64,000 nt of DNA from a virus, in the IMG/VR virus record IMGVR_UViG_3300030060_007200; one strand, 5' to 3'. Shown here piece after piece: positions 28,198 to 41,204 of the stretch. A program made the translations under genes and the position numbers. The notes beneath the pieces are model-generated. The model searched no databases. It had not been told where the DNA came from and worked only from the letters and a program-made list of their open reading frames with translations. Each line of letters opens with the position of its first letter. Within the stretch, counting starts at the first letter, position 1.

Positions 28198-29055
28198 CTA
28201 TTCTCCTTTTGAATTTTTTACATATTCTACTTTTATCTTTATTTTTGGCTCGTAACTATCAGGTGTTCTATCATCGATACCAAAATATTCTGATTTATCT
28301 TTATCCATTCTTAATGTAAATTCTAAATCTGTCACATTCATCATTAGCTGGCCTGTGGTAGAAAGAATATCTTTTTCTGTAGGTCCTTTGACCATATCTA
28401 CATTTCTATATGGATTGTTTCTCATATTCTTTGCATGATATGCAGACAAGCCATTTAATACATCGCTAGGTGTTTTTACCTTTGAAAGCATATCTTGTGC
28501 GTATTTCCATCTTAATTCTGATGATTTTTTATTAAGTCCTGAGGTATATCCAGAATCATCATAATCATATCCGTGATTTGTTCTCACATGATTATGACCT
28601 CTATTTAATTTTTTAATAACTGGCTCGTGTTCAGATGTCATTTCTATTGAATATGTATGTTTTGGTGTCGCTACAAATGTATGTCCTTTAACACCAACAT
28701 CTCTTTTGTCGTCACCTTTGAAATTAACTATTGATAATATTGATTCAGACGCTTTTCTAAACATAAGAGCTCGTCTTATTTTTTTACCGTCTTCTGATGG
28801 CTTGCCTTTTTTCTTTGCTAACTTCTTTTCTTTTTCATCTGCATTTACCATAAGAGCAGAATTGATAACAGCAGTACCATAATTATTCATACCTTCTGAC
28901 CAATCAGTATCTTCGTCAACAATATAAACCATTTCTACATCATTGATTAGCTCTCTTACAACTTTAACTCTTGCTGTATAAGAACGGTCTCTATTTTTTG
29001 CTAAAATAATTTTATTATTAACAACAGTATGTGCTATTGTACATTCGTTTATCAT
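28198..29055 (-). CDS. Ntn-hydrolase (Cys nucleophile; C45/C69/choloylglycine-hydrolase-like)
   Basis: Start MINE-CTI after AAAGGAG; LAKNRDR, EGMNNYG and VRTNH motifs. Confidence 0.75.
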   Translation of the reverse strand: MINECTIAHTVVNNKIILAKNRDRSYTARVKVVRELINDVEMVYIVDEDTDWSEGMNNYGTAVINSALMVNADEKEKKLAKKKGKPSEDGKKIRRALMFRKASESILSIVNFKGDDKRDVGVKGHTFVATPKHTYSIEMTSEHEPVIKKLNRGHNHVRTNHGYDYDDSGYTSGLNKKSSELRWKYAQDMLSKVKTPSDVLNGLSAYHAKNMRNNPYRNVDMVKGPTEKDILSTTGQLMMNVTDLEFTLRMDKDKSEYFGIDDRTPDSYEPKIKIKVEYVKNSKGE

Positions 29056-29086
29056 TTGCTCTCCTTTATATATAAATATCAAACTA

Positions 29087-29614
29087 CTATTTAACCAGTG
29101 AAGTTACAATAGTTGTTTCAGGGTATTTCTTTTTAAGAGCGTCGACTGCCTTTATATTTTTAGGTGAATCGTCCATAAAATATATTGGGTCATAACCTTT
29201 TTGAATTTCTTTTTCTATATAATCTGCTTTTTTCTGTGGGTCTCCACTACCTAATGTAATTACATAAGGCTGAATTCCTATTGATTTGAAGAAAGAGTTA
29301 ATTGGTGCGCCAAGTCTTCTCGCTGTAAGTATCGTTACTTTTCTACCACCTTTCTTTAATTGTTTTTTCAATAAATCTGCATTCTTTTTTATTAACCTGG
29401 GATTTCTTATTGGCCTATCAAAATCTCTAAAATCATATGACTGTCCTTTTTTAAGACCTTTATGCACAGCAAACTGTGCCGCATCCAATGTATCTACAAC
29501 ACTTCCTTCATCGTCAACAACATATACCCATGAATCTGATTTTACTAATGTATCATCAAAATCAAAAATGCTTAACATTCTTTTTTCTAATAACAGGTCT
29601 TTTAATTTAATCAT
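29087..29614 (-). CDS. HAD-family hydrolase with a putative capsid-targeting N-terminus
   Basis: MIKLKDLLLE; IFDFDDTL, ILTAR, K and FMDD. Confidence 0.75.
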   Translation of the reverse strand: MIKLKDLLLEKRMLSIFDFDDTLVKSDSWVYVVDDEGSVVDTLDAAQFAVHKGLKKGQSYDFRDFDRPIRNPRLIKKNADLLKKQLKKGGRKVTILTARRLGAPINSFFKSIGIQPYVITLGSGDPQKKADYIEKEIQKGYDPIYFMDDSPKNIKAVDALKKKYPETTIVTSLVK

Positions 29615-30093
29615 AGATACTTTTTCCAATTCTTTTCAGCATTTCTAGCTTGTTTTTCCATAGGATTATTTGTATATCCTTTTTCTCTACCTTGCTTTAT
29701 TTTCTTTGGGTCTTGTGTTGCGTGTGTATATTCATGAAGCATAGCACGTATTACATCTTCCTCAGAATTAAGAGCAGCCTTATATAAATATATAGTATTG
29801 TCTTCATGTACAAATTCAGCATGCTCGTTTTCACCGCCTGGATAATCATCAATTCCACTGTATCTTGCATAAACATTGCTGTGTATTTCGATTTTAGGTG
29901 TACCTTTTCTTGCTCTACCTAAATTTTTAACAACCTGAGGATATATTCTATTAACGATTTTTAATATATCGTTTTTTGACATTCCTTCTGATAGTATTTC
30001 TTTTAATTTTATCATTTTATACGGACAGTTTTTACAACCACAGTTACAACAGAATCCTCGATTTAATAAAAATTCTCTTGATAGAGGCTTCAT
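29611..30093 (-). CDS. Zincin-like (HExxH) protein; in-frame upstream Cys-rich DUF5522-like peptide, second start at 30015
   Basis: RGFCCNCGCKNCPY then MIKLKEILSE; LHEYTHATQ...NPMEKQA. Confidence 0.65.
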   Translation of the reverse strand: MKPLSREFLLNRGFCCNCGCKNCPYKMIKLKEILSEGMSKNDILKIVNRIYPQVVKNLGRARKGTPKIEIHSNVYARYSGIDDYPGGENEHAEFVHEDNTIYLYKAALNSEEDVIRAMLHEYTHATQDPKKIKQGREKGYTNNPMEKQARNAEKNWKKYL

Positions 30094-30282
30094 TTATTCC
30101 CATTTTCTTTCGTATTTTTCTCGTTGGTCAACAAGAACATATTCGACAATATCATTTTTGCCACAGTGAGGACAGTTTAATCTTTCTAAATTAGTTGCCT
30201 CGTTTATCTTCCACTCACCTTTACACGTTTTGTCACTGCACTTATAGATATATGTGTGTCGTATAAATACTTTGTGTCCCAT
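30094..30282 (-). CDS. Zn-ribbon protein
   Basis: Probable start MGHKVF; CSDKTC...CPHCG. Confidence 0.55.
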   Translation of the reverse strand: MGHKVFIRHTYIYKCSDKTCKGEWKINEATNLERLNCPHCGKNDIVEYVLVDQREKYERKWE

Positions 30283-39213: not shown

Positions 39214-39214
39214 T

Positions 39215-39604
39215 TTAATCTCCAAATACTTTTTTCTTGCCACCGTGGTATTCATAAGCATGACCTTCGGCTTTAAGTGTTTCGTTTATATTATATTGTT
39301 TACCGTCCTTATCCTGTATAAATATCTCACCTAAAACTCGGCCATATTTTCCAACACCATGACTTTTTAATCTAAAGTAGCCAGCCTTGTCGCTGACCTC
39401 CATTAGTAATTCTTTATTACGAGCCTTAGCCTCCAAACCTTTTGCTTTTTCTGCCAAGTCTCTTGTTCTACTTTCCCAAGTATCTATGCCTGTATATCGA
39501 ATTCTTTTCTTAACCCAAATATCAAAGCCAACATCTATAAGAGCATCGATAGTATCTCCATCGACAACTCGTTCTAGCTTTCCTCTATAAATATATTTGT
39601 CCAT
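39215..39604 (-). CDS. Thermonuclease (SNase-like)
   Basis: RVVDGDTI, RIRYTGIDTWE and GKYGRVLG. Confidence 0.9.
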   Translation of the reverse strand: MDKYIYRGKLERVVDGDTIDALIDVGFDIWVKKRIRYTGIDTWESRTRDLAEKAKGLEAKARNKELLMEVSDKAGYFRLKSHGVGKYGRVLGEIFIQDKDGKQYNINETLKAEGHAYEYHGGKKKVFGD

Positions 39605-39831
39605 TACTTTATATTTTTCTTTAAGTAAGCAACGCAAAAATTTAATAATTCTTTTCTTGCTGGAGCTATATCACCTTTTTCAGTCATAGGACCAGTTTTC
39701 CATTCAACCCATCCTTCTACTATAGTTTCTAAACCTTCTTCCATACCAGGCATAAGCTCGATATATTCCTCGTTGATTTTTTCTTCGTTTATCTTTCTCA
39801 ACCAAGCATGTGTGTTAAATTCTTTTGCCAT
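39604..39831 (-). CDS. Hypothetical putative head-cargo protein
   Basis: WLRKINEEKINEE near the N-terminus. Confidence 0.5.
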   Translation of the reverse strand: MAKEFNTHAWLRKINEEKINEEYIELMPGMEEGLETIVEGWVEWKTGPMTEKGDIAPARKELLNFCVAYLKKNIK

Positions 39832-41204
39832 TAGTATTGCTCCATTTTATCTAATTTAGCCATAAGTTTTTTGAACTCAGCTTTTTTCTTTTTATATTCT
39901 TTTTCTTTTTTATCTATTTCTTTACCATATCTAGTAGCTTTAGGGCCACCTTCTGGTTCTGCTTCCTGTTCCATGTCTATATGTAACTGTTTAAGATCGT
40001 TAGTTATCGTTTTCATATCATATTCAAGGTCCATGATAGTATCTTGTAGTTTCATTTTTGCATCGAAGTGTTTCCAAAGATTTGTTGCTTCGTTTACAGA
40101 TTCTTTTGCCATCATGACAGCAAGTCCTAAGTCATCAATAATCTTTTTAGCATCATTAAAGTATTTTTTATCCAACTTCAGTGCTGTCAAAGTTGTAGAT
40201 AATCTATTCATTGAATATCCTTTTATTTTAGCTTTATCCAATGCTTTTTGTAAGTCTGCAGGTTTGAAGTTTCCAGCAGTCTTTATACCAATCATACTTT
40301 CATTTAATTCGTTAACACCTTCGCCAAAATTCATAGCTCTTAATTGAAATTCAATAATTCCTTCAGCGCGCTTTCTGTTTTGTTTACCAACAAGCTTTGC
40401 GAATGCCAATTTGTCAAAAATTACCTTTGCTGCTTTTACAGGATTTAATCCTTCATTTAATTTGCCTTCTATAATAAAATCATCAAATCCTCCAATATGA
40501 CTTGCAAGAGCCTGGCTGTGCATTAGTCTTCCTGTTTTTGGATTCTTCCAAGAATTTCCTGATATTTTTAAGAACGGTCCATAACCACCGCCTTTTGCTT
40601 TTGCACCTTTTTTAGCTTTTACCAAATCTTTTTCTACAGATTCGTTTACAGATTCATTCCTCATGTTGTATTCTACATCTTCAATCCAGTCAGCAACGTC
40701 AAACTTTTCATAATCTTTTACAAACTGTCCTGGTTTTTTTCTAGCAATTTGCTCGATAGATTTTAGATAGTCTTTAACATATCTTTGGTCTAGTCTTCTG
40801 CCTTTTGTAGTTTGAAGTAGAGCCTCTTTGGCAAATTTGAAAACATCTTTTGCCATGCTTTCATTTAATTCGCCTCTAACTATATTTTCTAAATGAAGTT
40901 CAGCATCTTTATCCAACTGTACAATCATTGAATTTAATAATTTTTGAGCTTGCTTTTTCTTTGCTGTTAATGCTGCAGCAACCTTTTTATATTTTTCCTT
41001 GTCAGAATCTGTAGTTGCGTCTTTGTAAGATTTTAGATTTTTTAATAATTCAGCTGTAACTTTTGCCAACGCATCATATGCTTTTGAAACCTTTAACGGT
41101 GTCACTTTTGCTTCATCTAGGTCGTGTAAAATCTTTCGTTTTTCTTTTTCTGTAAGTTCAGAAAGCTCTTCACTCACTATTTTTTGAATATCAAGTTTAC
41201 CCAT
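39831..41204 (-). CDS. Modular helical protein punctuated by LNE/VNE/LDE motifs (putative processed head protein)
   Basis: Repeated ELNESM, ESVNE and KLNE; AAGGAG and TATTTATA upstream. Confidence 0.6.
   Translation of the reverse strand: MGKLDIQKIVSEELSELTEKEKRKILHDLDEAKVTPLKVSKAYDALAKVTAELLKNLKSYKDATTDSDKEKYKKVAAALTAKKKQAQKLLNSMIVQLDKDAELHLENIVRGELNESMAKDVFKFAKEALLQTTKGRRLDQRYVKDYLKSIEQIARKKPGQFVKDYEKFDVADWIEDVEYNMRNESVNESVEKDLVKAKKGAKAKGGGYGPFLKISGNSWKNPKTGRLMHSQALASHIGGFDDFIIEGKLNEGLNPVKAAKVIFDKLAFAKLVGKQNRKRAEGIIEFQLRAMNFGEGVNELNESMIGIKTAGNFKPADLQKALDKAKIKGYSMNRLSTTLTALKLDKKYFNDAKKIIDDLGLAVMMAKESVNEATNLWKHFDAKMKLQDTIMDLEYDMKTITNDLKQLHIDMEQEAEPEGGPKATRYGKEIDKKEKEYKKKKAEFKKLMAKLDKMEQY

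Follow-up and report, generated by a model that had tools for sequence, protein, structure and literature searches.

The stretch of DNA analysed here, called the window below, is the 64,000-nucleotide sequence of the IMG/VR virus record IMGVR_UViG_3300030060_007200, and its part from 28198 to 41204 encodes a series of unrelated proteins that begin with the same short peptide, hereafter the tag. Every gene of the window is on the minus strand and the GC content is ~32%. The genes that bear the tag or a looser form of it, together with an adjoining hydrolase of the cysteine N-terminal nucleophile (Cys-Ntn) type, are the following (aa, amino acids; pI, isoelectric point).

39831..41204, minus strand: 457-aa modular basic protein, looser leader ending I-V-S-E, repeated (L/V)-N-E junctions.
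39604..39831, minus strand: 75-aa protein, degenerate leader, site at R-K-I-N-E.
35392..35628, minus strand: tagged gene A, 78 aa, pI 9.8, no known domain.
32163..32672, minus strand: tagged gene B, 169 aa, DUF5824 (E 2.9e-21), pI 10.0.
31820..32161, minus strand: tagged gene C, 113 aa, no domain match, pI 10.3.
30828..31823, minus strand: tagged gene D, 331 aa, PAP2 phosphatase (Pfam E 1.6e-13).
30287..30850, minus strand: tagged gene E, 187 aa, C-terminal DUF5754 (E 1.8e-8).
29611..30093, minus strand: gene F, a DUF5522-like Cys-rich peptide (30016-30093), the tag (start 30015) and a 124-aa HExxH protein.
29087..29614, minus strand: tagged gene G, 175-aa HAD-type phosphatase (PHROG 415, E 3.5e-8).
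28198..29055, minus strand: Cys-Ntn hydrolase, 4-residue leader M-I-N-E directly before the catalytic Cys.

The first-pass annotation of the window had reported that unrelated proteins of this part share a start of 8-10 residues. The regular expression that it gave, M.{0,2}[KR]L[KQ].[IL][ILA].{0,1}E, was run at each ATG, GTG and TTG codon in the six frames of the 64 kb. Exactly seven matches were obtained, all on the minus strand and limited to 29614-35628, with starts at 35628, 32672, 32161, 31823, 30850, 30015 and 29614. The consensus is M-(I)-K-L-K-x-(I/L)-L-x-E, and the ending is (L/I)-x-E in all seven cases. Stop and start codons overlap as ATGA at 31823 and 29614, which indicates that these, and not the longer starts of the open reading frames (ORFs), are the true starts. 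The background in related DNA is close to zero: the strict pattern has no match on either strand of 76 related loci devoid of the system (~1.1 Mb) and 18 coding-strand matches in the four closest loci. A loose pattern matches 44 times on the coding strand and once on the opposite strand of 54 protease loci; for 80 anchor loci the corresponding numbers are 22 and 0. Synonymous variation in the tag codons is about that of the genome as a whole (Leu as TTA/CTA/CTT/CTG, Lys as AAA/AAG), so that selection appears to act on the peptide. All seven tagged proteins and the adjoining Cys-Ntn hydrolase are basic, with a pI of 9.1-10.3. Among export signals, the Sec, Tat and lipoprotein types were rejected because the leader has no hydrophobic core, and that of the type IX secretion system (T9SS) because T9SS signals are C-terminal.

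What follows the tag differs from gene to gene. The domains previously named (HAD, HExxH, PAP2 and DUF5824) are recovered by Pfam and PHROG matches, the HExxH motif being present; the accompanying statement that the domain begins directly after the Glu is accurate for the HAD-type phosphatase alone, whose DxDxT motif lies 7 residues past the tag Glu, whereas linkers or extra modules intervene in the others. In gene D the order is leader, N-terminal module, DUF3008-like insert after an L-F-E site and PAP2 phosphatase, and all three PAP2 motifs (K-x6-R-P, P-S-G-H and S-R-x5-H-x3-D) are present in the translation. An Atlas search with the 113-aa protein of gene C stayed at noise level (score 0.80).

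Two IMG/VR relatives are of particular use for the comparison: G001, a contig collinear with the window in which most ORFs are 75-99% identical at the protein level, and G005, a collinear contig of 104 kb in which 37 ORFs match at 25-82% identity. No deposited phage was matched by megablast with 28000-42000, and an exact 45-mer of the window is missing from viral and metagenome contig collections. The window also encodes a DNA polymerase fragment, GroEL, an ATP-dependent DNA ligase, glycosyltransferases and a 1099-aa protein (35625-38924, minus strand) with a signal peptide and many ~30-residue Cys-containing repeats, 71% identical to a G005 protein; this content points to a large Bacteroidota phage as the source. 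The C-terminus of the 1099-aa protein resembles a T9SS-type sorting domain, as read by eye only.

The tag is portable among these genomes. When the tag is removed, 60 unique tagged proteins from the pooled loci fall into 34 clusters, and those of relatives include a Zeta-toxin-like kinase and a cell-wall hydrolase combining PG_binding_1 with a TseH-like domain. The latter, a 451-aa protein of locus L006 (11961-13313, minus strand), consists of the tag, PG_binding_1 and a hydrolase domain of the type VI secretion effector type, and it is a candidate capsid-delivered cell-wall enzyme. Although the two phages are ~90% identical, the slot of gene C is occupied in G001 by a different tagged gene, and the DUF5754 part of gene E has a homologue in G005 that bears no tag. 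The PAP2 gene of G001 has no DUF3008-like module, which the window copy carries exactly after L-F-E and which stands directly behind a tag in other contigs. A module common to G005 and to a tagless clade can be aligned from just after the Glu, behind two different leaders.

The head module of the phage lies outside the 64 kb. The gp21-like protease that the first-pass annotation had asked for is found in G005, which encodes a gp21-type Peptidase_S77 protease (E 8e-36) and a Gp23-family capsid protein (E 1.8e-71), along with putative portal, terminase and scaffold genes assigned by order and size. The Glu at which T4 gp23 is cleaved (E65) is invariant in an alignment of the capsid proteins of T4, G005, locus L061 and Flavobacterium phage immuto, which suggests that the specificity of the prohead protease is probably conserved. 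The tag is linked to this module. In G005 the protease is immediately followed by two genes that begin with the tag or a close variant, as does a gene upstream of the terminase; four further tagged genes lie in the block matching the window, and none elsewhere in the 104 kb. In most of the related loci read that continue beyond the protease, M-K-L-K-x-(I/L)-(L/Y)-x-E begins the gene that follows it; L061-type loci have M-K-M-M-S-L-L-K-E instead, and more distant protease loci M-K-L-S-x-I-I-x-E. The capsid protein and the scaffold also begin with tag-like leaders in some relatives. Conversely, five large contigs, one of them rated 100% complete, that share an outer-membrane-type gene with the window have neither tags nor an S77 protease.

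The sites at which the tag ends are also conserved within the cargo families. The HExxH motif is present in 120 of 120 homologues of gene F, and the alignment of 39 of these sequences shows conservation at tag positions 1, 2, 4, 5, 7 and 8 and an invariant Glu10. The tag is recognised by the regular expression in 92/120 homologues of the HAD protein and 98/120 of the HExxH protein, many of the remaining ones being near variants. The AlphaFold2 model of the HExxH protein has a pLDDT (predicted local distance difference test) score of 89, with tag residues 1-7 below 50, which we read as disordered. Its Foldseek matches are weak (E 0.14 or worse) and all of them are zinc metallopeptidases; the match to Pfam DUF3920 falls below the cut-off, and searches of PDB sequences returned nothing useful for this protein or for the Ntn hydrolase. 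Some HAD and HExxH homologues have another tag inside the protein, or an (L/I)-x-E site immediately ahead of the domain, and in one case an Ntn hydrolase is fused with a tagged HAD protein. A fusion is also seen in the window, where a translated 26-residue DUF5522-like Cys-rich extension (30016-30093, minus strand; Pfam E 2.2e-6) precedes the HExxH tag in the same frame. G001 keeps the amino acids of this extension despite synonymous changes, the joint in G001 has an I-N-E site, and the DUF5522-HExxH fusion recurs in three database clusters, one of them just 56% identical. An untagged ORF between genes E and F (30094-30282, minus strand; ~62 aa from an internal Met) has a zinc-ribbon-like CxxC...CxxC arrangement.

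The looser leaders attributed earlier to the 75-aa and 457-aa genes are backed by homologues in relatives. The 107-aa homologue of the 75-aa protein in G005 carries the strict tag, and the leader of the 457-aa protein resembles that of the 313-aa gene following the G005 protease. BLASTP of the 457-aa protein against two tagged head-module proteins of G005 gave no significant similarity beyond the leader. Compared with its 572-aa homologue in G001, the 457-aa protein differs by whole modules, the extra ones being bounded by G-K-(L/V)-x-E; it is probably a head-packaged polyprotein.

The Cys-Ntn hydrolase is especially informative about the predicted cut site. Its M-I-N-E leader is a minimal version of the tag. 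In the AlphaFold2 model (pLDDT 88.8) the first strand begins at Cys5, a residue that is invariant among 40 sequences, and Foldseek retrieves the isopenicillin N acyltransferase precursor 2x1c (E 8e-10) as well as bile-salt hydrolases, penicillin V acylases and NAAA. Of 117 homologues bearing the signature, 116 have Glu at P1, immediately ahead of the Cys, and 113 have Leu or Ile at P3. The leaders of this family vary from 4 to 144 residues; 37 of them start with the tag, and some contain a whole HExxH module, giving tag-HExxH-Ntn fusions. Such an enzyme needs a free N-terminal Cys, and the near-constant presence of a gp21 site before it fits activation in trans by the head protease. We consider the L/I-x-E|Cys junction the strongest single piece of evidence with which head-protease processing can be argued.

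A promoter-like motif, TTGATAyTTATAT, is associated with several of these genes.

41241..41253, minus strand: TTGATAyTTATAT, 49 nt before the 457-aa gene.
35666..35678, minus strand: TTGATAyTTATAT, 50 nt before tagged gene A.
29070..29082, minus strand: TTGATAyTTATAT, 27 nt before the Ntn hydrolase gene.

In G005 the same motif precedes both head/neck genes and tagged genes. On the minus strand, the interval from 35628 to 29087 holds no terminator-like site; a scan for sigma-70-type promoters stayed at chance level. A copy with one mismatch is present at 9038-9050 (minus strand).

The closest known parallel is found in phage T4. In the T4 record (NC_000866), ipII and ipIII start with M-K-T-Y-Q-E-F-I-A-E, and ten-residue leaders ending L-L-R-E and L-I-A-E begin gp24 and gp22, respectively. 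The first ten residues of IPIII are enough for packaging; targeting involves residues 4 and 7, processing involves residues 8 and 10, and gp21 cleaves after L/I-X-E (PMC9026906). Other basic proteins with similar leaders exist in T-even relatives (PMC9026906), and the T-even internal proteins are a diverse set with the targeting sequence alone in common (PMC3012670). The tag resembles the leader of IPI, IPII, IPIII and Alt in its length of ten residues, its hydrophobic positions 4, 7 and 8, its Glu10 and its L/I-x-E end. In both cases the leader stands on otherwise unrelated basic proteins in variable loci, with a gp21-type protease that is read here in a collinear relative, and the tagged genes adjoin a lysis gene, as T4 ipII and ipIII adjoin the lysozyme gene e. 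The differences concern the consensus (M-I-K-L-K-D-I-L-x-E here against M-K-T-Y-Q-E-F-I-A-E), the host phylum, here Bacteroidota, and the cargo, which consists here of recognisable enzymes (PAP2, HAD, HExxH and Cys-Ntn, with a kinase and a cell-wall hydrolase in relatives); moreover, the tags of the present system also occur internally at module joints. The N-termini removed by gp21 from gp24 and gp22 are likewise similar to the tag, and in relatives the scaffold, capsid and post-protease genes have tag-like starts; gp24 and gp22 are structural proteins of the head, whereas the leader belongs here to enzymes whose genes lie apart from the head module.

We propose, as the likely interpretation of these gene comparisons, that the shared N-terminus is a T4-type capsid-targeting propeptide, removed by the prohead protease and carried by exchangeable cargo. 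A portable leader of this kind, cut by a gp21-like protease after (I/L)-x-E, had been the core of the first-pass annotation, and it is corroborated by the match with T4 leaders, the protease and capsid protein of G005, the tagged neighbours of the protease, the promoter-like motif, the at least 34 groups of cargo and the Ntn junction. The comparisons show the motif, its specificity and portability, its link to the head module and protease in relatives, and the conserved geometry of the cut site, from which docking, cleavage, packaging, injection and the action of the enzymes in the host are a further inference, along the following lines. The tagged genes would be transcribed together with the late head and lysis genes, and the short amphipathic leader would dock each protein onto the scaffolding core during prohead assembly. 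The gp21-type protease would then cut after the tag Glu, with Leu or Ile at P3, and the mature, mostly basic proteins would be freed in the head and exit with the DNA at the next infection. In the window this cargo would comprise the PAP2 phosphatase, the HAD phosphatase, the small HExxH protein, the DUF5824 and DUF5754 proteins, two proteins with no assigned domain and the Cys-Ntn hydrolase, in which the same cut would uncover the catalytic N-terminal Cys. Injection of this cargo may serve an anti-defence or takeover role. Since the protease would cut at the junctions, fusions and insertions of modules at L/I-x-E sites would be tolerated, and the locus may evolve by cassette swapping. A stronger form of the proposal can also be hypothesised, to which we give somewhat less than an even chance: the head protease would be the obligatory activator of its cargo, the Ntn zymogen and the fused HExxH and HAD enzymes becoming active only inside matured capsids and being delivered active to the next host, as an exchangeable, maturation-gated payload that evolves by in-frame fusion at protease sites.

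Several observations weigh against the capsid-targeting interpretation. The tag of gene F is internal to the longest conserved ORF rather than N-terminal, and the T4 tag has been tested at the N-terminus only. The cargo shows no depletion of internal L/I-x-E sites (9 observed against 8.2 expected), so that sequence alone cannot predict the cut sites. The S77 protease and head genes are those of G005, the phage's own lying outside the window. The head module of Flavobacterium phage immuto, the nearest cultured relative (55% identity in the capsid protein), is devoid of M-K-L-K tags; two neighbouring genes of this phage share a different leader. The enrichment of TTGATAyTTATAT in the window is modest (1.4 matches expected, 5 found), and 5 matches are reached in 4 of 100 shuffles. 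The Glu-Cys junction could in principle serve autoprocessing of the Ntn hydrolase. No proteomics was found for any tag-bearing phage.

The alternative that best survives the comparison is that the tagged proteins are accessories of the prohead core or scaffold, which the leader would bring into the growing core and which would be degraded or expelled after cleavage like T4 gp22, gp67 and gp68; being neither retained nor injected, they would form no arsenal of effectors. It would account for the presence of the tag on acidic or coiled scaffold-like proteins adjoining the protease, for the richness of the 457-aa protein in junction sites and for the similar N-termini of T4 core proteins. However, intact PAP2 and HAD catalytic motifs and an Ntn hydrolase that the cut would activate are odd in a disposable scaffold, and the cargo is basic, as are the T4 internal proteins that are retained (PMC9026906). 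We regard this alternative as unlikely.

Less probable again, and to our mind rather remote, is a leader with no relation to the capsid that acts in the cytoplasm as an interaction or regulation peptide, such as a degron or a helix that docks on the phage GroEL, with the Glu-Cys junction arising from autoprocessing. The phage does encode a GroEL, and Ntn hydrolases are generally known to be capable of self-processing, but the same leader on the genes flanking the prohead protease would be left unexplained, as would the match of P3 (Leu/Ile) and P1 (Glu) to gp21 and the occurrence of tags at fusion joints. In addition, we know of no Cys-Ntn precursor that uses Glu at P1. Conservation at the level of the nucleic acid, as an A/U-rich 5' coding element for translation initiation or for a translational repressor in genes devoid of a ribosome-binding site, is very improbable, since the A/T-rich tag codons and the missing Shine-Dalgarno site of several tagged genes are outweighed by synonymous codons varying about as in the genome, by an invariant Glu and a hydrophobic pattern that are features of a protein, and by tags inside fusion proteins, far from any start.

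The proposed capsid-targeting propeptide can also be compared with systems more distant than T4. In encapsulins, a short terminal peptide likewise sends diverse enzymes inside a shell of HK97 fold; this peptide is usually C-terminal and uncleaved, and the shells contain no DNA and perform no injection. The Cys-Ntn zymogens (acyl-CoA:isopenicillin N acyltransferase, penicillin V acylase and bile-salt hydrolase) share with the hydrolase described here the fold and a free N-terminal Cys made by leader removal, but the known ones process themselves or lose only the Met, whereas Glu before the Cys and Leu or Ile at P3 fit a head protease acting in trans. The ejection and inner-body proteins of the giant phages phiKZ, 201phi2-1 and SPN3US, which belong to other phage lineages and use gp21-related proteases, are cut at an S/A/G-x-E motif, and their propeptides are longer, with no uniform ten-residue tag. 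In these phages many head-packaged proteins have propeptides cut after the Glu of a short motif, some of them with several sites (PMC9026906). In the literature, the concept was found for T4, T-even phages and giant phages, and not for marine or Bacteroidota T4-like phages.

Work on the T4 capsid targeting sequence (CTS) has been almost confined to T-even coliphages, whose cargo consists of a few small basic proteins and Alt. The system described here would extend the logic of T4 to abundant uncultured marine Bacteroidota phages, with a consensus of their own and enzymes as cargo. It would provide a sequence rule to predict which hypothetical proteins are packaged in virions, as well as a list of candidate early-acting effectors. 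The existence of mosaic loci of fused modules would also be explained, because the protease would separate the modules again. The Ntn hydrolase is a sharply testable case, since it would owe its active site to the head protease. If the proposal is true, the tag would be a natural means of loading proteins into the capsids of Bacteroidota phages.

Some other features of the region and of its relatives deserve mention. One of them belongs to the same late block as the 75-aa and 457-aa genes.

39215..39604, minus strand: staphylococcal-nuclease-like gene (Pfam SNase E 1.4e-7).

The regular expression finds no tag in this gene, whose homologue in G005 is 82% identical; in studies of T4, an enzyme of this type was reportedly used as an artificial cargo of the CTS. 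In tagless clades, a second type of leader, M-x-(D/E)-N-F-(D/N)-L-(K/R)-x-(F/Y)-(L/V), starts several unrelated genes, for instance in L179 (Flavobacterium phage immuto, 2727-4027), L108 (18324) and L071 (10629). A hydrophobic-x-E site is present a few residues downstream in most of them, and one of these genes is annotated as a PduO-type adenosyltransferase. Finally, a lysis-like cassette (32669-35383, minus strand) lies between gene A and the main cluster of tagged genes. The products of this cassette are a 352-aa protein of outer-membrane type, small membrane proteins, a secreted thioredoxin-like protein and an M15 peptidase (Pfam E 2.1e-13). The outer-membrane-type gene (34325-35383, minus strand) seems to move between unrelated phage groups, since it is found at 52-64% identity in many contigs (loci L102-L178) that have neither tags nor an S77 protease.

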